Origin: Candidatus Latescibacterota bacterium
GTDB lineage: Bacteria > Latescibacterota > UBA2968 > SICM01
NCBI GenBank assembly: GCA_965217865.1
Contig: CBDCJO010000002.1
Coordinates: forward strand, 4,192,001-4,256,000
Direction of reading: 5' to 3'
DNA length: 64,000 nucleotides
The notes beneath the pieces were generated by a model. That model had not been told where the DNA came from, made no database searches, and worked only from the letters and a program-made list of their open reading frames with translations. Shown here piece by piece: positions 1,707 to 41,870 of this stretch; the first letter of the stretch is position 1; the number at the start of each line of letters is the position of its first letter. The translations under genes were made by a program, and so were the position numbers.

Positions 1707-2708
1707 ATGCGAATCCTGATCATTGGTGGAACAGATTTCATTCGATCCTCTATCGTAAAAAGGCTAAACGAGATGGGCAACGAAGTAGCCTTGTTTAACG
1801 GGGAACAAACCCAAGCCTTGCCAGCTGGTGTCAACAGAATCGAAGGGAAAAAGGAGAACCTCTCTGACTTTAGAGAAGAGTTCAAGGCTTTTGATCCACA
1901 GATAGTTGTTGACATAGTTCCTTTTGCCGAAGGAGAATCTCGCAACTTAATCAGGACGTTTGAGCGAACGGTAGATCGGATCGTGGCTGTGACCAGCCTG
2001 GATGTTTATCGTGCCTGTGAGGTCTGGGAACGGGATGCACCTGGACCAATAGAGCCAACTCCAATAACAGAGGAGTCACCGCTGAGGCAAAGCCGGGTTG
2101 GGGACGAAAATCCGGATCAGTCCCATTGTGAAACCATGATCGAAAAGGCTGTAATGAATGAATCCGAATCACCGGGTACTGTTTTGCGCATACCGAGGGT
2201 GTACGGTCCAGGGAGTCATAACCTGTTTTCGTACTTGAAGCGAATGGACGACAGCCGGCCTGCTTTTCTGATCGGGAAAGGTTTTGACCGGTGGCGCTGG
2301 ACCAGAGGATACGTAGAAAATGTCGCGGATGCCATAGCCACTGCGATCATAGACCGTCGAGCCGAAGGCAGGACTTACAATCTGGGTGAACCGGATGCTC
2401 TTCCTCAAGCAGAATGGGTGAGAGAGATCGGGCAAGCAGCGGGATGGAAGGGTGAAATCGTTGTCGTACCCACGGATGTCCTGCCCGATCATATGAGGGA
2501 CAACGACAACCCTGAACAAGACATGTTTGTTGACACAAGCCGGATAAGGAAAGAACTGGGATACACTGAGATATTTTCCCGGAAAGAAGCGCTAAAGCGA
2601 ACGATTAATTGGCTTCGAGCAAATCCACCTGATCGAGTTGATCCCAGGGAGTTCGACTACGCAGCAGAAGATAAGATATTAGACGGTTTGAAGCAGCACG
2701 GACATTAA
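1707..2708 (+). CDS. NAD-dependent epimerase/dehydratase (extended SDR)
   Basis: N-terminal MRILIIGGTDFI Rossmann-like motif; VLRIPRVYGPG; RGYVENVADA. Confidence 0.85.
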   Translation: MRILIIGGTDFIRSSIVKRLNEMGNEVALFNGEQTQALPAGVNRIEGKKENLSDFREEFKAFDPQIVVDIVPFAEGESRNLIRTFERTVDRIVAVTSLDVYRACEVWERDAPGPIEPTPITEESPLRQSRVGDENPDQSHCETMIEKAVMNESESPGTVLRIPRVYGPGSHNLFSYLKRMDDSRPAFLIGKGFDRWRWTRGYVENVADAIATAIIDRRAEGRTYNLGEPDALPQAEWVREIGQAAGWKGEIVVVPTDVLPDHMRDNDNPEQDMFVDTSRIRKELGYTEIFSRKEALKRTINWLRANPPDRVDPREFDYAAEDKILDGLKQHGH

Positions 2709-2750
2709 CGTGTAGGTCACGGCTACGGCGCGCTCCGCACCAACTCGCCA
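2703..2750 (+). other. attC half-site remnant
   Basis: taacgtgtaggtcacggctacggcgcgctccgcaccaac overlaps the stop codon and matches the reverse complement of one arm of the attC sites at 41942-42020 and 37850-38011. Confidence 0.6.
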
Positions 2751-2920
2751 AATCCACCCACACCGAAGACGGCCGTGGGTTTTTCTTTTTCCCTTACTAC
2801 CAATTCCATATCTTAATCTATACACGGCCACTTCTACAACCTCTGAAATCGTTCGCCGCAAGCCAGGTTCGCCTGGGGCCAGACCGGACACACTCTTAGA
2901 TTCTGAGGAGAACGAGAATA

Positions 2921-3411
2921 GTGGACGCACACATCAGAGTAGGCACAAAGGCCCTCATTCTTCGAGACGACGCCATTCTGCTTGTTGAATACAATGACGA
3001 ATCGGGAATCCACTACAACATGCCAGGAGGTGGGATTGAGCCCGATGAGACTTTGGAGGAAGTACTTATAAGAGAGGTGAAAGAAGAGACTTGCGCCGAA
3101 ATCGAAGTCGGTCGACCACTCATCATTACGGAGTACGAGCCGAAGAGAAACTCATTCTGGGGAGGCCCTCTCCACAAGCTCACAGTGATTTTCGAGTGCA
3201 GTCTCAAAGGTGGCAAAGAACCCCGAATGCCACAGACACCTGACCCCATCAGACAGCGGTCAAGTGGATCCCCCTGGTTGATCTCGAAAACGTGGAATTG
3301 CTTCCACACGTTACAGATAAAGTTCTGGCCTACGCGAACAAACAGACAACTCTCTACCCAATCTATCTATGCGAACCCATAAACCCCGACAAAGTTCAGA
3401 AGTACCTTTGA
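2921..3411 (+). pseudogene. NUDIX hydrolase, frameshifted near 3247
   Basis: Nudix box GGGIEPDETLEEVLIREVKEET; plausible C-terminus (HQTAVKWIPLVDLENVELLP...VQKYL*) lies in another frame after a C run. Confidence 0.8.
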
Positions 3412-3748
3412 TGTTCTTTGAAGAAAATTGTAGTAGGAGCCCTATTACGTGGGTACTACCGGCTAACACGCGCTTGCGGCTCGTCCTGCCAGCCTAGTTT
3501 AAATATGGGAGGAGAGACTTCAGAATTGCTGGCGGATAGCACAAACTTAGCTGGTCTGAAAAGGCTTCTGTCTTCACGTCAAGCCTTATATGGACGACCG
3601 TTTCAAGCGGGTCGGCGCTACGAAACTCTGGGTTTGCCAACAACAACAAAGGGTTTGTATCCACCTCAATCTCTTCAGCTTTTACTTCGAGCTCCGTTTC
3701 CCAGGTGGGACTAAGGTTTTCCGCAGCACGAATGAAAAATGAACCTAG

Positions 3749-5274
3749 CAGCCTGTTGAAAAAGTGCGTTTATGCCAAGATGACTGTTGTCTTTCCTTGT
3801 GGTTTGGTCCTATGATATATCAGGTTCAAACTGAGAAGGGAGGACGAGCAAATGGCAATGGGAAAACGAGGACGACAGAGACAGGAAAACCTGTTCATCG
3901 CATCGAACACTTTGGTGAAATCTCCGGGTCATCCGTTCTACGAGAAGCTGAATCAGGTATTGGGGGCGAACGGCTTCGACGAGTTCGTCGAGGGGCTTTG
4001 CCAGCGGTATTACGCTCCTCATATGGGTCGCAAGGGCATTCCGCCCGGGGTTTATTTTCGGATGCTTTTGATTGGGTATTTCGAGGGACTTGATTCGGAA
4101 CGTGGGATCGAATGGCGTGTATCTGACTCGCTGACGTTGCGCCGGTTTTTGGGGTATGCCCTTGACGAACAGACCCCGGATCATTCCAGCCTGTCTCGCA
4201 TCCGGCATCGGCTTCCCTTGGAAGTTCACGAAGCGGTTTTCAAGTGGATCCTGAGGGTCTTGTGCAAAGCGGGTCTGGTGAAGGGGAAGACGTTGGGCGT
4301 GGATGCTACGACACTGGAGGCCAACGCCGCGATGCGCAGCATTGTACGCCGTGACACGGGTGAAGGCTACCAGGCATTCCTTGAGAATCTGGCCAAGGCC
4401 TCGGGCATTGAAACGCCTACCCGCGAGGACTTGTCCAAGATCGATAAGAAGCGACCGAAGAAGGGATCGAACCAGGACTGGGAGCACCCGCACGACCCGG
4501 ATGCCAAGATCGCTAAGATGAAGGACGGTCGCACGCACATGGCGCACAAGGTGGAGCACGCGGTGGATCTGGACACCAATGCCATTGTGGCAGTGGCGTT
4601 GTCGGGAGCAGATGAAGGAGATACCGAGTCGTTGCCCTGGACGCTGCTCGAGGCGCCGCTCAATCTCAAGCAGGTCGCGAAGGACGAAAAAGCTGCCAAA
4701 CGTTTGCACAGACAGCGTATACGGGAGGTGGTTGCGGACAAAGGATATCATAGCAACGATGTATTGACCAGTCTGAAGCAAGGCGGCATCCGGAGTTACA
4801 TTTCAGAACCGGATCGGGGACGCCGCAAGTGGAACGGCCGACGAGATGAGCAGGCCGCGGTATATGCGAATCGACGCCGGATCAAGGGAGATCGCGGCAA
4901 GGCCTTGCGCCGAAGTCGTGCAGAACGGGTGGAAAGAACCATCGCTCACACATATGATACCGGTGGCATGCGCAGGTTGCACTTGAGAGACCGCGGCAAT
5001 ATCCTCAAGCGTTTGCTGATCCACATCGGGGGCTGCAACCTGGCTCTGCTCATGCGCAAAGTGATGGGCGTAGGTACTCCGAAGGCCCTCCAGGACCTGG
5101 CCAAGGCCTTGCAGCGTCTACTGCTCGTCCTACAATCACGTTTGCTGCCCTCGGTCACCTTTTTAACCTCTTATCAGCGTCTCCTGCTCAATCTCCTTAC
5201 CTTGATTTATCTGACCCGCACTCCAGGCGTCTTTTCCGTTTATGTGCGTTGAAAGGTAGTTCTTCAACGGGCTG
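3749..5274 (+). mobile_element. IS1182/IS5-like insertion sequence, copy 1 (1526 bp)
   Basis: Terminal IRs cagcctgttgaa / ttcaacgggctg; CTAG on both sides; near-identical to 24598-26123 and 28922-30447. Confidence 0.92.
3852..5252 (+). CDS. DDE transposase (DUF772-like N-terminus)
   Basis: TPDHSSLSRIRHR, GVDATTLEANA, VVADKGY, RVERTIAH motifs. Confidence 0.92.
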   Translation: MAMGKRGRQRQENLFIASNTLVKSPGHPFYEKLNQVLGANGFDEFVEGLCQRYYAPHMGRKGIPPGVYFRMLLIGYFEGLDSERGIEWRVSDSLTLRRFLGYALDEQTPDHSSLSRIRHRLPLEVHEAVFKWILRVLCKAGLVKGKTLGVDATTLEANAAMRSIVRRDTGEGYQAFLENLAKASGIETPTREDLSKIDKKRPKKGSNQDWEHPHDPDAKIAKMKDGRTHMAHKVEHAVDLDTNAIVAVALSGADEGDTESLPWTLLEAPLNLKQVAKDEKAAKRLHRQRIREVVADKGYHSNDVLTSLKQGGIRSYISEPDRGRRKWNGRRDEQAAVYANRRRIKGDRGKALRRSRAERVERTIAHTYDTGGMRRLHLRDRGNILKRLLIHIGGCNLALLMRKVMGVGTPKALQDLAKALQRLLLVLQSRLLPSVTFLTSYQRLLLNLLTLIYLTRTPGVFSVYVR

Positions 5275-5556
5275 CTAGGGGCTTTATCTCTCCCCAGACA
5301 ATTTTCTGTTCTCTGTGCCATCTTTGGGCCGCATCTGGACGATTCAAATGGTCCAGGATCACCCAAGTCATCGACATCGGGATATTGAATGTTACTCTAC
5401 CTTCTGACGGTGCTAGTTTAAATGTCAAAGCGCATGTGGGATTGGGCAGAGATTGGATGAAATCGACATATGCCTCCTGACTCACTGATCCGACTTTCAC
5501 CTGCTGTATCTATTCTGAGATAACAAGAGAAAAGCAGATAAAGGTCCAAGCAAGAT

Positions 5557-6588
5557 TCAGGCAGCCTTGTGGATGGTCTGGGATGTTCTTTGCCGATTGA
5601 TTTCTATGCGGCGCTGCCGAGCCTCCTCCTTTCGACCTTGTCGGTGGTGAAGAATCTTTTGATGCTGGCCTTTATGCCTCTGAAGAGGCGTGACATACTG
5701 TATTGCCCCGTGATAGCGTTCGGCGTTGTAGCTGTGAATGAAGGAATCAATCAGGCCTTCCAGTTGATGGAATGTGAAGATGTCCTGGAAGCGCAGCCAG
5801 TCGTATTTGAATGTCCGGAAAAAGGCTTCGATCCAGGCGTTGTCCGTGGGTGTTTGATATCGGGCAAACAGCTGCGAGATGCCCAGGTCCTTGAAGAATT
5901 GGGCCATCGATTTGGCCTTCATCTGAGATCCGTGATCTGAGAGGGCTGTCAAGCTTATGGGCCCAGTGTCCAGGTCCAGCAGTCCTTCGTTGGCAAGGGC
6001 TTGATCCCAGGCCTGTTTGACCTGCTCCACGGTCGCGTTGAAGGAGAGCTTCCATCCTACGATCTTCCTGGAATACACGTCGAGAATGGCGGTAAAATAC
6101 AGGAACAAACCGAAAAATGGGATGTAGGTCAGGTCCCAGCTCCAGACCTGATTAGGACCTTCAGGTTTGACCTGGGGCTTGCTCTGCTTGACCGGCGTCC
6201 TCACCTGTTTCCTGCGTGCCAGACGTTCTTTCCTGGCCTGTCGGTAGAAGCTGGAGGCCGAGGCCTGCACTACCCCCTTCTCTGAGGCTACCACCGCCAG
6301 CTGATGGGGAGGCAGATCGGCATAGGTCTCATCCCTTAAGAGGGCCGGGATTTGCTCTTTCTCCTCCCTCAGCAATCCGTGTGGGGCCTCATCAGGGGCG
6401 GGCCCGGGCTTCCCATCCAAAAGCGGGTCCGACACCCCATCCAGCTTCTCTTCTCGATCTCGCCGGCTCCAGGCACAATACCGCTGGAGGGGAAGCTGTA
6501 GGATCTCGCAAGAACGGGTGAGTTTCACCCCTTTCTCCTTGGCCCGATGGACCATTAAGAGGATCTCGCGTTTGACCTCAGCTTGCAC
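5557..6588 (-). CDS. Transposase OrfB (rve integrase core)
   Basis: PNQVWSWDLTYI, ILDVYSRKIVGW, SDHGSQM, DNAWIEAFFRTFK, YNAERYHGAIQY. Confidence 0.9.
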   Translation of the reverse strand: MQAEVKREILLMVHRAKEKGVKLTRSCEILQLPLQRYCAWSRRDREEKLDGVSDPLLDGKPGPAPDEAPHGLLREEKEQIPALLRDETYADLPPHQLAVVASEKGVVQASASSFYRQARKERLARRKQVRTPVKQSKPQVKPEGPNQVWSWDLTYIPFFGLFLYFTAILDVYSRKIVGWKLSFNATVEQVKQAWDQALANEGLLDLDTGPISLTALSDHGSQMKAKSMAQFFKDLGISQLFARYQTPTDNAWIEAFFRTFKYDWLRFQDIFTFHQLEGLIDSFIHSYNAERYHGAIQYVTPLQRHKGQHQKILHHRQGRKEEARQRRIEINRQRTSQTIHKAA

Positions 6589-6611
6589 CCGGTGGCCCTT
6601 GATCGGGCCTG

Positions 6612-6947
6612 TCAGATCCCATTCACACTTTTTTTTAGCAGGGAAAGTTCCACAGATTGCTCAATGATCGTTTGCTCCAGGCGTGCCCGCTCTTTGCGCA
6701 GCTGCTCCACCTCCTCAGCCGATACCATCGGCTTGCGGCTCCGGCGACCCTTGAACTCCTTGAGGGCCCCGGACTTGACCGACTCACGAATACGCTTTAG
6801 ATCCGAGGAATGAATGCCCCATTTCCGCAGCACCTGTGCAATGGGAACATCTCCCCGGCTGGCTTCAAGGAAAATCTCATACTTCTGTTCCGGGGACAAG
6901 CTCCTGCGCTTCTTGACCGGGTCACTGTTTGAGGACAGTTGCTCCAT
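6612..6947 (-). CDS. Transposase OrfA (HTH plus coiled coil)
   Basis: KRRSLSPEQKYEIF...LRKWGI HTH; AAAAAAAAG slippery site (6628-6636, minus strand) would give a -1 shift into orfB. Confidence 0.85.
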   Translation of the reverse strand: MEQLSSNSDPVKKRRSLSPEQKYEIFLEASRGDVPIAQVLRKWGIHSSDLKRIRESVKSGALKEFKGRRSRKPMVSAEEVEQLRKERARLEQTIIEQSVELSLLKKSVNGI

Positions 6948-7826
6948 CTTTACTCCTCCTGTGAGGTCAGGGATATCCCAAAATATGTATCCCTTCTCAA
7001 CCCTACAGGCAACCAGGATCTTGCTTCGACCTTGCCCCCGTTTTTTCGGGCGATCTCAGACAAAAGATACCTGCGTGCTGCTTCCCAATCCATTTGAAAT
7101 GAGCATTCCCATCAAATTCGCCAACTTGACGTGAAGTTTCTCCAAGCCCTTCAAGTGTTTCTGAACTTTTTCGGCAAATTCCTGATTTGCCGAAAGTCGT
7201 TGGTTCTTGCCAGCCATGTTCATCAACTCCTTTCTCAATCGGTTCCTGGAAGTATGGAGCTGATTGTTAACTTTCGTCACGGCGATCTCCAGGAAGGAGG
7301 CTATTTCCTTCTGAGAGAGCTCGGCGATATAGAAGAGAATCACAACAGTAAGTTCAGGCTCTGAAAGTGCTTCGATTGCGGTCAGCACCTCTTCTTTTCG
7401 ATTCCTTTCATCCAGAAGCTCGTCTGGACTTTTTTGGTCCGAGGCCACATCCCGGGCCTCATCTAATTGTTCAGTTGGAACTTGCTTTCCCCGAGTGAGC
7501 CGATCACACTGAGTCAAGATCACTCTGCGAAACCACCCTGGAAATGCGGAAGGCACTTTCAGGTTGCGTAGATTTACGAAGGCACCAATAAACGCTTCCT
7601 GAGCAGCATCTTGTGCCAAATGCCAATCCCTGAGTTGCGAGAAAGCAAAGGCCACTGCCATGTCCTGGAACCGCCGAACAATTGTGTCAAAAGCGTCCAG
7701 ATCGCCATTTTGAGCCCGAACTACGACGGCATCTAGCTCTTCCATCTCCCATCCTATCTTATTAGAAGGCCTTCTACGTATAAAGACCCAACCTGGCGCC
7801 AATAGCTTTATAGAGAACTTTCTATC

Positions 7827-8728
7827 ATCTAAAAAGGCCCATCGCCAGTGCCCTCTTACAGGGAATGTAAGTAATTGTGCTATGGAAACAGAAGAGGTTT
7901 ACGAGCTTGCCGAGAAATTGGGGTGTGCGCAGGCAAGGATCGCTGACCGTTCGCCTTCGCCGGGAACTGTCGACACGTCCGTTCCTGGATTGCGGCTGAC
8001 GATTGTCCCGTCGCATGATACACCATATCCTTCGAGCAATCAAAACCGCGCACAGACTCTTCCTGGCGGAGTCGGCTGGCAGAAAGACTCCGCAGCAAAA
8101 TGCGTCGACCGCTACGTGGACGCGGGCGTGGAACGCTTTTTTGTATGGGTCAACGCGTGTCCTGATTGTGAGCGGATTGTACGTGATCTAAAGAGTGCGG
8201 GATTCAGGAGTTTTACAGGCGCCGGTTATCCAGTCTTGGCGCGCTCAGCCGACCGGATCCCGCAACCCGACACGTCATTCGTCGTCCGGCCCTTCAACCC
8301 TTCCCGGGATCGCAAGCGAATTGGTGACTACCCCGATTCAGAACGCCGTGAGGCCATCGTGCGTTCGCTTAAGCATGGCGACGAGCAGTATTTTATTGCT
8401 TGGGAGGGGAAGACCCCAGTTGCAACCGCTTCGGTAGTCGTGAACGGCCTGCTGGGCTATCTTTATGGCACTTTCACACTGGAGCCATATCGTGGCAGAG
8501 GAGCACAGACGGCCCTGATCGCAGCTCGCGTAAACTACGCAGTTGAACTAGGCTGCAAGTGGGTCGCCTCTGAGACGGTAAGTCGAGCCAAGACCTCCTT
8601 GGGGAATCTTAAGCGTCAGGGATTTCGCGTCATATACAAGAAACGAGTCTTCTCCTGGAAGGAGAAGCTCAAATAACGAGTCCCCTTCGGCCATCAAGGA
8701 CGGGCACTGGTGATGGGGCTTTTTAGAT
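7827..8728. repeat. 27-bp inverted repeats (7827-7853, 8702-8728) bracketing a GNAT gene
   Basis: atctaaaaaggcccatcgccagtgccc vs gggcactggtgatggggctttttagat, 25/27 complementary. Confidence 0.8.
7882..8676 (+). CDS. GNAT-family N-acetyltransferase
   Basis: TLEPYRGRGAQTALIAAR acetyl-CoA motif; SLGNLKRQGF. Confidence 0.8.
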   Translation: METEEVYELAEKLGCAQARIADRSPSPGTVDTSVPGLRLTIVPSHDTPYPSSNQNRAQTLPGGVGWQKDSAAKCVDRYVDAGVERFFVWVNACPDCERIVRDLKSAGFRSFTGAGYPVLARSADRIPQPDTSFVVRPFNPSRDRKRIGDYPDSERREAIVRSLKHGDEQYFIAWEGKTPVATASVVVNGLLGYLYGTFTLEPYRGRGAQTALIAARVNYAVELGCKWVASETVSRAKTSLGNLKRQGFRVIYKKRVFSWKEKLK

Positions 8729-8761
8729 CGACGAAGGAGATTCGTTTAATTCGACGACACG

Positions 8762-10198
8762 TCAATTTACCCTGGGAAAGAGCACGGCTCCCTGACGAAT
8801 CTCCGGTCCAGAAAATCTCTCCTTGATTTCTTGCCCGGTTCCGGGTAGAAATGGGGCCAGCCCCTCTCCCACCGATCTAATCGAATCCACCCACCTGGTC
8901 AGGTGCCCTCGAAGGGCGGAAATTCTACCTTCCTTAAGGAGGTCCCACGGTCTGACACTTTCTATTTGCCGGTTCAGATCTGTCACACCCCCTTGTAGGA
9001 TTTCCAAGCATTTGTGATACAGAAATCGATCCGCATAATACGCAACATCAGCGGGCGGATTTGAACCCCTGCCTGGCGTCACTTTGATTCTCGCCCTTTC
9101 ACATAGAGTTTCGAGGCGTCGGACGAGGTTGCCAATACCATTCGCCAGCTCGGACGAGTATACCTCCCGGAACCTGGTGAGCGAAAAGTCCCCATCCGCT
9201 CCGCTGGGGATCGCCCTCAGAAGGAAATAGCGGAGGGGGTCCGGTCCGTACTGGTCGATGATCGGGAAGGGATCGACCGCGTTGTGGCTGGATTTGCTGA
9301 TCTTTTCGCCGTCGACCGTAAGGAAACCGTGCACCACCAACTTATCGGGAAGAGGCAGCCCTGCGGACAGCAGCATCGCCGGCCAGTAGATTGCGTGGAA
9401 GCGAAGGATGTCCTTGCCGATCACGTGTATCTTGCAGGATTGGTCGTTCCAGAAACGCTCGAAGTCTTCGTCGTTTCGGCCAAAGCCGATTCCGGTAAGG
9501 TAGTTTGTCAAAGCATCAAACCAGACATAGAGCACCTGGGATGGGTCCCCCGGAACAGGGACTCCCCAGCCGCCGGACCTCTCGCAAGGCCTGGAAATGC
9601 TGAAATCCACCAGTCCCCGGCGAACGAACTCCAGGGCTTCGTTCTCTCTTGCTTGAGGAAATATCCGGAGCCGCCCGGATGATATCAGGTCTTCGAGTTC
9701 TCGCTGGTAGGCAGAGAGTCGGAAGAAGTAGTTCGTCTCTTCCACAACCTCAGGTTTGGTGGAGTGGATCGGACAACGGCCTTCATCCAGCTCCTCTTCT
9801 TCATAGAAGCCTTCGCAGCCTGCGCAATAGAGCCCCTTATAACGGTGGGGAAAAATGTCACCTTTTCGACAAAGTTCCCAGAATTTCGAAGCACCCAGAT
9901 GATGCGCCGTCAAGGATGTTCGGATGAAGTTGCCGTTTGAAATAAGCAACTCTGCGGACAACCTCTTGAACACGTCCGCGTTTCGATCACAGAGCGCTTG
10001 AGGCGTTAGGCCTGCTTGTTCAGCGGACCGAACGTTCTTCAGGGCATTCTCGTCCGTTCCGGTGAGCAAGAAGGTTTCATTCCCTCTTAGACTTTCCACT
10101 CTGGTAATCACGTCAGCCAGAACGAGTTCAAACGCAAATCCGACGTGGGGGTCCGCGTTTACGTAGGGAATGGATGTTGAGACAAAGGTGGTATTCAT
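8762..10198 (-). CDS. metG: Methionyl-tRNA synthetase, short form
   Basis: STSIPYVNADPHVGF (HIGH variant), LTGTDEN, YVWFDALTNY, GKDILRFHAIYWPAML, KISKS. Confidence 0.93.
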   Translation of the reverse strand: MNTTFVSTSIPYVNADPHVGFAFELVLADVITRVESLRGNETFLLTGTDENALKNVRSAEQAGLTPQALCDRNADVFKRLSAELLISNGNFIRTSLTAHHLGASKFWELCRKGDIFPHRYKGLYCAGCEGFYEEEELDEGRCPIHSTKPEVVEETNYFFRLSAYQRELEDLISSGRLRIFPQARENEALEFVRRGLVDFSISRPCERSGGWGVPVPGDPSQVLYVWFDALTNYLTGIGFGRNDEDFERFWNDQSCKIHVIGKDILRFHAIYWPAMLLSAGLPLPDKLVVHGFLTVDGEKISKSSHNAVDPFPIIDQYGPDPLRYFLLRAIPSGADGDFSLTRFREVYSSELANGIGNLVRRLETLCERARIKVTPGRGSNPPADVAYYADRFLYHKCLEILQGGVTDLNRQIESVRPWDLLKEGRISALRGHLTRWVDSIRSVGEGLAPFLPGTGQEIKERFSGPEIRQGAVLFPRVN

Positions 10199-28087: not shown

Positions 28088-28133
28088 ACCTAACAAAGCA
28101 AATACACACGGCCGGTGATTTGCAGCGTTAGGT
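28088..28133 (+). other. Short attC-like site (plus strand)
   Basis: ACCTAAC-aaagcaaat...atttgcagc-GTTAGGT, perfectly complementary cores; 46 bp, shorter than typical attC. Confidence 0.55.
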
Positions 28134-33017: not shown

Positions 33018-33668
33018 ATGGAAGATCTACAATCACTCATTAGACAGACGCGAGAAGGCAATCTCCGCGCATTTGGCTATGTAGTCCGAAGATTTCACGA
33101 CATGGCGGTCGGATACGCCTTCTCCATCCTGAACGATTTTCATTTGGCGGAAGATGTCGCTCAAGAAGCCTTTGTGCAGGCTTTCTCCAGGCTCAGTCAG
33201 CTTACGGCCCGCAGGAAACTGAAGGACATCATCACCAGCAAATTCGATGAGTTGTTGCCAGAAACTTCGCCAACACACACCTATCAAGGAGCCCAGCATA
33301 TGTTCAAAACGATGTTTCCCGAGCTGCACGTATCCGACGTCGAAAAGGCGGCGACCTTTTTCTCAGAGGCGCTTGGTTTCAAAAGAGGATTTACATACGA
33401 GGAGGAGGGGAATCTGGACTTCGTTGTAATGTCCCACGGAGACAAGACCATATACCTCCACCACATGCTTCCTGATGTTGAGTCCGAGCAACCACGTCGG
33501 ATGAGACTCTACTTCCAGCCGTACGACATTGATCGCCTTCACACAGAGCTGAAGTCAAAGGGGTTCCAGGTTTCGCAGCTTGAAGATGAGAGCTACGGGG
33601 CAAGGACGTTCACTCTGAAAGGACCTGACCAGTACGAGATTTGGTTCCAGCAATGGACATCGAACTAG
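33018..33668 (+). CDS. Internally deleted ECF sigma factor fused to a VOC/glyoxalase domain (inverted within its cassette)
   Basis: VRRFHDMAVGYAFSILNDFHLAEDVAQEAF jumps to TARRKLK; then PELHVSDVEKAATFFSEALGF...YGARTFTLKGPD. Confidence 0.75.
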   Translation: MEDLQSLIRQTREGNLRAFGYVVRRFHDMAVGYAFSILNDFHLAEDVAQEAFVQAFSRLSQLTARRKLKDIITSKFDELLPETSPTHTYQGAQHMFKTMFPELHVSDVEKAATFFSEALGFKRGFTYEEEGNLDFVVMSHGDKTIYLHHMLPDVESEQPRRMRLYFQPYDIDRLHTELKSKGFQVSQLEDESYGARTFTLKGPDQYEIWFQQWTSN

Positions 33669-37256: not shown

Positions 37257-37853
37257 CTAATCCAACTTCTCCCTCGCAATCTCCACAATCCGGCCTCGCA
37301 CCACCTGTACGTCCTGTTCTCGAACTGTCCCCAGAGATCCTATCTCATCTCGAATCAGGCCTGCCACACGCTCCGTCACATTCTGGAAAATTCGATCCTG
37401 CACGGCCTGGCTAGCCCCATTCAGCGCAACTGCCAAATCTCTCGTATTCAGCTCACGTAGCATCCCTTGTATTTCCCGGTCGCTCAAATTTATAAGATCC
37501 TCAAACGTGTTCACCTCACGTATCCGTTCCGATAACCGACTTACCTGCTCCATCTCTTCGGCCGAAAGCGACCAGTCGAACACATCCATATTCTCTTTCA
37601 GATGCCCCTCTGAACTCGCCTTGGGAATCACCACCATCCCCTGCTGCACCAACCACCGCAGTCCCACCTGCCCGGGGGTCTTACTGTGGCACTGGCCAAT
37701 ATTGATCAGAGCAGGCTCTCCCAGAATGCGACCCCTTCCTAACGGCGTATGTGCTGTCACCACCACGTTGTGTTCTCGACACCATCGCAACACGTCCCGC
37801 TTCTCCTCCCCGGGATGGTACCTGATCTGGTTCACGCTAATGGGTACCTCGCT
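37257..37853 (-). pseudogene. 5'-truncated aldo/keto reductase fused to a FliG C-terminal domain
   Basis: NQIRYHP, AHTPLGRG, IPKASSEGHLKENMDVFDWSLS, then TFEDLINLSDREIQGMLRELNTRDLAVALNGAS...IFQNVTERVA. Confidence 0.82.
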
Positions 37854-41219: not shown

Positions 41220-41870
41220 TCAATATAGGACATTGAGCTTCTGCTCAACAATATGGGGGTTGTCACCGCTTTGAATCGACTTGATGCCCTCAAGGACTTT
41301 CCGATATTTCACCTTCTGTTCATGTAGCAAAGACTCCATCCAGGTGCTAAGAATTGCCTGAACCAGTTCTGGTTCCGTTCCATCCACGGCTAGCCGAACA
41401 GCCGTAGTCAAAAACTTATCGCCCGGGCTTTGCACCATATTTTCCAACGTCATGATGCCTTCTCTCCGAGCTATCTCGGCAAACCCGACAAACAGCCTGT
41501 TAATCTCATCGGAACCGAGCTCAGAGAGCGGACGCTTGATGGTGGTTCTTATCGCCCGTTTCGTAGCGAGGTATTTCTTCCCAAGCTTGGGCTTTTTAAG
41601 TTGCCTTACAGTTTTCACGATGGACAACTGCACATCCTCCACATCGCGCATTGGAATCGGATCGGAAATTTCCATTTCCTCTCTGACCATCGTCCGCACA
41701 CGCTTCGACATATTGCCAAATATTCGACCTTTCAGCTCCTTTGTCGCACCTTTCAGTGCAACAGCCAGGTCTTTCGTGTCCACCTCCCGTAGCATCAGCT
41801 GGATCTCCCGATCCGTTAGTTTCGAGAGATCGTCAAAGGTGATTTCATGGGTTGCTTGCGTCGCTGACAT
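41220..41870 (-). CDS. FliG C-terminal domain fused to the cytoplasmic part of MotA, no TM helices (cassette gene)
   Basis: AAGGAGG RBS; TFDDLSKLTDREIQLMLREVDTKDLAVALKGA...NMSKRVRTMVREEM (FliG_C); AEIARREGIMTLE...FLTTAVRLAVDGTEPE and LEGIKSIQSGDNPHIVEQKL (MotA). Confidence 0.85.
   Translation of the reverse strand: MSATQATHEITFDDLSKLTDREIQLMLREVDTKDLAVALKGATKELKGRIFGNMSKRVRTMVREEMEISDPIPMRDVEDVQLSIVKTVRQLKKPKLGKKYLATKRAIRTTIKRPLSELGSDEINRLFVGFAEIARREGIMTLENMVQSPGDKFLTTAVRLAVDGTEPELVQAILSTWMESLLHEQKVKYRKVLEGIKSIQSGDNPHIVEQKLNVLY

Follow-up and report, generated by a model that had tools for sequence, protein, structure and literature searches.

What gene did two transposons interrupt near one end of a 64,000-nucleotide stretch of a Candidatus Latescibacterota genome (contig CBDCJO010000002.1, positions 4,192,001 to 4,256,000; hereafter the window, meaning the whole stretch), and what would its product do? 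We found that the interrupted gene lies on the minus strand with its start at 7745 and that its product is an alternative sigma factor with the middle domain of FliM as its tail. Two insertion sequences (IS), designated IS-A and IS-B, divide it into three pieces, which are given below in the direction of the gene (identities refer to the intact proteins P0001 and P0002):

7070 to 7745, minus strand: piece 1, codons 1–225, with sigma2, sigma4, a conserved linker helix and helix 1 of the FliM middle domain; 78% identity to P0001.
5505 to 7069, minus strand: IS-B, with orfA at 6612–6947 (HTH_Tnp_1) and orfB at 5557–6588 (rve); 38 full copies in the genome, median identity 99.9%.
5275 to 5504, minus strand: piece 2, approximately codons 224–299, the central FliM middle domain; Pfam FliM match at 7.5e-6 and 77–78% identity to P0001 and P0002.
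3749 to 5274, plus strand: IS-A, with a transposase at 3852–5252 (DUF772 and DDE_Tnp_1); 87 full copies in the genome, median identity 99.8%.
3494 to 3748, minus strand: piece 3, approximately codons 299–383, the end of the FliM middle domain; 78% identity to P0001; stop codon at 3494–3496.

The original prediction held that removal of both elements restores one open frame of 1152 nt, with STQV joined to KVGSV and IKPL joined to GSFF. Indeed, excision of IS-A and IS-B together with their target duplications (1530 and 1570 nt, respectively) gave a single 1152-nt frame encoding 383 amino acids (aa), with one stop and exactly these junctions. An open frame alone is weak proof, since 1144 nearby cut combinations likewise yield an open 1152-nt frame; rather, the reconstruction is proven by the gap-free collinearity of the three pieces with the intact 383-aa proteins P0001 and P0002, at 77–79% identity per piece. 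The proposed search for intact orthologs containing both parts was thus successful (about 78% identity for these two), and P0003, a third intact ortholog, is 57% identical to P0001; P0002 is encoded in a genome (G077) of the same class as that of the window. Chance read-through as an explanation of the frame is ruled out by the intact orthologs. Piece 1 matches Sigma70_r2 at 22–80 and Sigma70_r4_2 at 118–170, while pieces 2 and 3 match positions 43–93 and 122–191, respectively, of the Pfam FliM profile, and the separated pieces contain zero stops, with ratios of non-synonymous to synonymous substitution rates (dN/dS) of 0.34 and 0.17, the latter for piece 3. In the present allele, piece 1 runs into IS-B and ends after 229 aa (open reading frame 7056–7745); with IS-A alone, the product would be 303 aa. 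Both insertions spared the predicted promoter, the sigma core and the linker and struck only the tail. Judging from the sequence, the allele still encodes a 229-aa sigma factor with a tail stub, and it may have lost the response to the signal rather than all function. An Rfam scan of window positions 2500–9000 gave zero matches.

How recent the insertions are was judged from the elements themselves and from public contigs. IS-A, which we take to be of the IS1182/IS5 type, is flanked by the target duplication CTAG (3745–3748 and 5275–5278), and IS-B, presumably of the IS3 type, by a 5-bp duplication (5500–5504 and 7070–7074); other IS-B copies show duplications of 4 bp (17 copies) or 5 bp (3 copies) or none detectable (20 copies). 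The ends of IS-B were fixed by its 38 full copies and by an independent 1565-nt contig (5505–7069) of run X8, and the span of 5505–7070 originally predicted therefore needs its right end moved to 7069, the removed length of 1570 nt being unchanged. The genome holds 125 full copies of the two elements together, 5 of them within 90 kb. Comparison of the locus with contigs of 8 of the 21 listed public runs revealed an IS-B-free joint (5498 joined to 7069, 1570 nt skipped) in X1, X2 and X7, so that the suggested check for IS-free alleles had a positive outcome as regards IS-B. The joint is seen in X1 and X2, which are one sample and possibly the source of the window, at depths of 20 and 29, near single-copy, with a short side of 24 letters (below the 31 letters set as the rule), and in X7 over 64 letters at a depth of 2.8. 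The IS-B junction is present in contigs of X3, X4 and X6, and the right junction of IS-A in those of X1 and X2. Since X1 and X2 have the IS-A junction and lack IS-B, IS-A was likely inserted first, and IS-B is likely still polymorphic between populations. An assembly artefact is ruled out, as both IS junctions recur in contigs of other runs. Collectively, the near-identical IS copies, the IS-B-free allele, the zero stops and the low dN/dS of the separated pieces bear out the recent insertions originally proposed. Separately, one X3 contig over window positions 3503–5528 has the left junction of IS-B without IS-A (net 1530 nt) at a depth of 2.6; its 3' part shows 46 differences over 237 positions, and it is probably a recombinant with a diverged homolog.

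What kind of sigma factor is it? Residues 1–175 contain sigma2 and sigma4 with 30 residues between them and no sigma3, as in extracytoplasmic function (ECF, group 4) sigma factors. PF04542 and PF08281/PF04545 scored over their cut-offs in piece 1 and in P0001, sigma3 (PF04539) gave no match at E ≤ 0.01, and in P0001 sigma2 ends at 87 and sigma4 begins at 118, within the gap of at most 50 aa; these criteria (both domains present, no sigma3, short gap) are those of PMC7826278. Among the best 25 NCBIfam matches listed, no equivalog exceeded its cut-off, only TIGR02937. No co-oriented anti-sigma gene follows the sigma gene at the window locus or at the six intact loci read, which agrees with the one-component type of control that the original prediction had envisaged. 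With a C-terminal extension of about 205 aa in 30 proteins, the threshold being a conserved extension longer than 50 aa, and no adjacent anti-sigma gene at these seven loci, the protein has the sequence features of an extension ECF; according to PMC7826278, extensions typically accompany the lack of an anti-sigma factor, and PMC8999054 describes inhibitory extensions in ECF41 and protein-binding ones in ECF42.

The tail, residues 194–383, was identified as the FliM middle domain by Pfam, by PDB sequence search and by fold, which, together with the ECF identity of the core, bears out the predicted domain composition. The intact ortholog covers positions 10–189 of the 192 of the Pfam FliM profile PF02154 (2.5e-15, 57.3 bits, cut-off 27), and the PDB matches of the tail profile are FliM in nine cases out of nine. 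The AlphaFold model of P0002 (predicted local distance difference test, pLDDT, 80.8; predicted template-modelling score, pTM, 0.51) superposes on the FliM middle domain with a Z score of 23.6 (root-mean-square deviation 1.8, 174 residues aligned), compared with 18.0 for FliY and 17.4 for CheC. By profile and predicted fold, the tail is thus derived specifically from FliM and not from CheC; of the CheC-fold domain named in the original prediction, the fold stands as shared, whereas the domain itself comes from FliM and has no conserved CheC motif. As also predicted, Pfam and motif checks revealed neither an N-terminal CheY-binding peptide (LSQxEID, which we take to be its motif) nor a SpoA/FliMN_C domain. 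The full-length FliM model TIGR01397 gave 60.6 bits, below its cut-off of 219.6, and no membrane helix was predicted (maximum 19-residue hydropathy, 1.52).

Does the tail retain the surfaces of a motor FliM? The GGxG loop, which binds FliG (PMC4642947 and PMC4938800), is present in 25 of 25 motor-type FliMs and in none of the 30 fused tails, where the loop at this site, lying in piece 2 of the window gene, is hypervariable in length and sequence. FliM–FliM cross-link positions were taken from Table 1 of PMC4642947 and transferred by us through the PDB alignment, the transfer of numbering being our own. At seven of the ten self-association positions (57, 64, 76, 94, 184, 185 and 186), the motor residue occurs in 0–8% of 26 tails, and at the other three (56, 63 and 93) in 42–50%; mean retention of the motor residue over 110 conserved columns is 35% (four partial or aberrant tails of the 30 are omitted from these counts). 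The core residues H205, W315, ETxP and LCYP are retained. With GGxG and most ring contacts lost and the core kept, the tail is a folded scaffold with new surfaces, and it is unlikely to join the C ring or to bind FliG in the known way. In the comparison with the G077 ortholog (one pair), dN/dS was 0.23 (0.15–0.35) for the tail and 0.30 (0.18–0.50) for the sigma core; purifying selection acts on the tail as strongly as on the core.

How widespread is the fusion? A profile of five fusions was run against 1.84 billion representatives, and among the best 150 matches, each its own 50%-identity cluster, 28 had a FliM tail; with P0001 and P0002 they make up a set of 30 sigma-FliM proteins, some of them partial, and the sampling favours the fusion. 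Those with a named source are from Latescibacterota. Among 168 genomes of the phylum, with 11 candidates scored per genome, copies, full-length or broken, were found at nine loci in six genomes of six genera. Around the genes lie variable islands that contain GNAT, NUDIX and epimerase genes, and no neighbour is conserved; in more than 20 clusters that are less than 50% identical, the same domain boundary limits the tail. A scan of metagenomes with P0001 gave 36 loci and no close full-length ortholog, the same metagenomes yielded a few weak matches to the tail profile (which included the linker), and the ESM Atlas returned generic sigma clusters only, with scores below 0.9. In a tail tree, the 30 fused domains stand apart from 22 motor-type FliMs on a 99-supported branch, the tree being quick and unrooted, with long branches and no outgroup. 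In the sigma-core tree, from which 6 of 153 proteins are left out (five short cores and the truncated product of the window itself), 22 of the 25 FliM-tailed proteins share one side of a 99-supported branch with seven others; the remaining three lie elsewhere, so that some tail shuffling has occurred, and at least three changes of the FliM label are required. As side observations, the copies L026 (G011) and L088 (G163) have a TAG within the tail where the near-identical P0056 and P0051 read through, and L023:2692–3744, L025:2697–3755 and L029:1593–2444 encode divergent FliM middle domains behind a non-sigma N-terminal helical domain, for which no Pfam match was found in the two proteins scanned.

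Other members of the sigma clade have other tails. Among 94 further clade proteins these are ankyrin (20), BFN (9), FliG_C (6), T2SSF (5), tRNA-synt_2d (3), T2SSE (2), Rho (2) and others, and another scan gave FliG_C in 7 of 30; FliG_N/M, PilM, histidine kinase, ATP synthase alpha/beta, citrate synthase, PheRS core and Pol III finger tails also occur, as does an FlhA-C tail on a more distant sigma factor in G077. Most members share a linker after sigma4, M-x3-L-x3-R-P-S-x-D-x2-F-x3-V, the P, F and V of which are conserved in 83, 89 and 89% of FliM-tailed and 85, 87 and 72% of other-tailed proteins (93 proteins with a readable linker). The region before the gene shows two features:

7784 to 7809, minus strand: predicted promoter, with a −10-like GGGTCT at 7784–7789 and a −35-like AAAGCT at 7804–7809.
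7764 to 7775, no strand: 12-bp palindrome AGAAGGCCTTCT, just downstream of the −10-like word.

A word resembling GG(G/T)(T/G)C(T/C), selected by a pattern that was permissive, lies 27–54 nt before the start in 8 of 8 sigma-FliM genes and 13 of 13 other clade genes read, and the GG(G/T)(T/G)C word is often followed by the palindrome GAAGGCCTTC. The 10-bp core of the palindrome is found upstream of 14 of the 41 sigma starts examined and at 49 places in the 6.4-Mb genome. The predicted promoter is probably autoregulatory. Because the upstream motif, core and linker are shared while the tails vary, promoter, core and linker form the unit in which the gene travels, and the tail can be exchanged; by these comparisons, FliM is one interchangeable module among many in the clade. 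Some further loci may be recorded here. Of a second clade sigma gene in the window (33018–33668), the first 62 codons remain; they are fused to an unrelated tail, and the motif before the gene is retained. In the same genome, an intact 281-aa ECF sigma factor with a FliG C-terminal tail is encoded at G000:C2:2600666–2601583 (L121:3667–4512). In G077, four sigma factors, two with FliM tails and one each with an FlhA-C and a FliG_C tail, are encoded within 17 kb (L085, G077:C1:943472–960123). A short attC-like half site (window 3450–3495) directly follows the stop codon of the interrupted gene, and a 46-nt attC-like hairpin lies at 28088–28133. The region is an island rich in IS, with small genes of the GNAT, NUDIX and similar kinds; the scan gave no full attC beside the gene and no IntI over the cut-off in the genome of the window.

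How, then, would the protein work? We favour, with about an even chance of being right, a one-component ECF sigma factor in which the FliM tail is likely a repurposed built-in sensor that frees the sigma factor from a predicted autoinhibition by the linker helix. The linker helix (residues about 187–200) would dock on sigma2, where helix 4 of class I anti-sigma domains binds (PMC7406223). A protein or small ligand other than FliG would bind the tail, most likely at the hypervariable loop, and pull the helix off, and the freed sigma factor would then transcribe from the promoter before its own gene. In the genome of the window, the tail-hit 229-aa sigma factor would no longer perceive the signal. 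In the model of P0002, the linker and FliM helix 1 form one continuous helix (187–220). Several observations weigh against this proposal. The likeness of the linker to helix 4 of class I anti-sigma factors is a resemblance only, and the 36-column linker profile, too short for a firm negative, matched nothing relevant in the PDB and none of the anti-sigma families of Pfam. With a pTM of 0.51 and residues 181–186 below pLDDT 50, the model gives the domain packing at low confidence. The tails diverge fast (median pairwise identity 23%; sigma core, 46%; motor FliM, 63%), no newly conserved polar residues were found in them and no binding site could be located, 3 of the 9 copies in the six genomes have broken tails, and a genome scan with the promoter matrix gave no regulon over background (23 versus 18 per Mb in the shuffled control).

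Alternatively, the tail may still bind a FliG paralog, FliM/FliN or CheY-P, the sigma factor reporting the assembly or state of the C ring, which we consider unlikely. Co-occurrence speaks for such a coupling: full-length sigma-FliM was found in 6 of the 25 clade-sigma genomes with FliM versus 0 of the 26 without it (Fisher p 0.01, uncorrected for kinship, the genomes being non-independent), and the fused-tail profile matched 68 of 168 genomes, all within the 69 having a FliM match and none among the 99 FliM-less ones. The five other carrier genomes all contain fliM, fliG and flagellin and have 4–12 FliG_M matches, four of them also contain a full flhA, and in G077 sigma-FlhA-C and sigma-FliG_C genes neighbour two sigma-FliM genes within 17 kb. 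Moreover, the genome of the window lost the tail together with a working flagellar operon. This operon (G000:C2:2185900–2205400; L119, L120) has decayed by large deletions, a frameshift and IS insertions: fliI retains about 190 of 446 codons, flgE is truncated at its 5' end, flgD, fliK, fliJ and motAB are missing from it, IS-B occupies the position of fliO, and a deletion that removed flhB fuses fliR to flhA, itself also frameshifted. However, GGxG is absent from all the tails and most ring contacts are lost although host FliM is conserved, the loci read have no flagellar neighbours, and the sigma-FliG_C gene is still intact in the non-motile genome of the window. The co-occurrence would be expected also if fliM were needed only as a donor, and it comes from a survey with 11 candidates scored per genome; it fits a flagellum-related role and also the availability of a donor with a general burst of IS. 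Apart from this, the genome of the window has 13 FliG_C matches, several near-identical stand-alone fliG copies, five flagellin matches and, outside the operon, two stand-alone copies of fliM. The window itself contains two FliG_C fusions (about 37266–37541 and 41595–41852), and relatives show the same expansion.

It is quite unlikely, in our view, that the tail is passive cargo, that is, that a duplicate of the sigma core was inserted into a fliM copy or ahead of it and so acquired a tail that plays no part in signalling, a route proposed for Planctomycetes ECFs (PMC7671368). The many unrelated tails of the clade, the position of all four lesions observed in the family within the tail, and the changes of the FliM label on the core tree would suit such a history. 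Purifying selection on the tail as strong as on the core and the identical domain boundary across more than 20 clusters speak against it, as does the split of the fused domains from motor FliMs, which, within the limits of that quick tree, does not look like fresh capture of host fliM. Very doubtful is the view that the tails are integrated decoys, baits copied from cell machines, with the FliM tail detecting a phage or competitor protein, or damage, directed at the flagellar switch. The tails do include pieces of the flagellum, type IV pilus and type II secretion system, ATP synthase, Rho, Pol III and PheRS, they evolve fast yet keep their fold, and the genes lie in variable islands with unconserved neighbours; nevertheless, inspection of the neighbours by eye, not with PADLOC, showed no defence genes, and the host surfaces, which should persist in a decoy, are lost here. 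A CheC/CheX-type response-regulator phosphatase fused to sigma is hardly credible and was rejected: although the fold is shared, the motif D/S-x3-E-x2-N, presumably the CheC catalytic consensus, is absent from the window protein and has three unaligned matches in 2 of the 30 tails, and both sequence and fold are closer to FliM.

Beyond the sensor reading of the single protein, the whole clade might be viewed, tentatively and with a rather low likelihood, as a plug-in sensor platform, in which a fixed core, promoter and autoinhibitory linker are combined with machine-derived domains (from FliM, FliG, FlhA, pilus, ATP synthase, Rho and Pol III) re-evolved as baits, so that engagement of a surface like that of a machine would switch on transcription. 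If true, bacteria would have in it a transcriptional equivalent of integrated-decoy receptors, and sigma-FliM would be among its larger branches. In any case, the clade is a natural series of one core and linker with dozens of tails, suited to testing control of ECFs by C-terminal extensions and to the question, raised in PMC7671368, of functional versus accidental tails; the window supplies natural tail knock-outs, with IS insertions varying between populations and a decaying flagellum in the genome.

In the literature searched, no description of a sigma-FliM fusion was found, though subscription journals and the rest of the supplements could hold one, and no paper combined Latescibacter, sigma factors and flagella. 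The sole paper found to mention ECF sigma, FliM and C-terminal extensions, PMC7406223, gives the name FliM to the FliA anti-sigma factor. The usual name of the FliA anti-sigma factor is FlgM. In PMC7826278 and PMC7671368, neither the main texts nor the part of the supplements covered refers to FliM, FliG or CheC in a relevant way, and FliM is absent from the main text of PMC8999054; as far as these sources extend, none of the extension types given in the ECF classification papers searched is a flagellar switch domain serving as a regulatory tail.

How does the protein compare with known systems? With CheC, CheX and FliY phosphatases it shares the pseudo-symmetric alpha/beta/alpha fold (Z 11–18), unlike them lacking a conserved catalytic motif and being closer to FliM by sequence and structure. 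It resembles the flagellar FliM middle domain (PDB 2HP7, 4GC8 and 4FHR) with Z of 22–24, 20–23% identity and PF02154 over the cut-off; unlike flagellar FliM, it has no CheY-binding peptide, SpoA or GGxG and most self-association residues are changed, and the fused tails diverge far faster and sit outside the flagellar operon. A conserved core with many unrelated tails is likewise seen in the captured-extension ECFs of Planctomycetes, as described in PMC7671368, whereas the present tail has clean boundaries, evolves under purifying selection and has persisted through a deep radiation. In plan, the protein is like known extension ECFs, with which it shares the sigma2 and sigma4 core, an extension that is soluble and about 200 aa long, the lack of an adjacent anti-sigma gene and likely one-component control; the difference is that the extension here is a FliM middle domain, and that, whereas known ECF groups are defined by one extension type, the linker of this sigma clade stays fixed while many tails are exchanged behind it.

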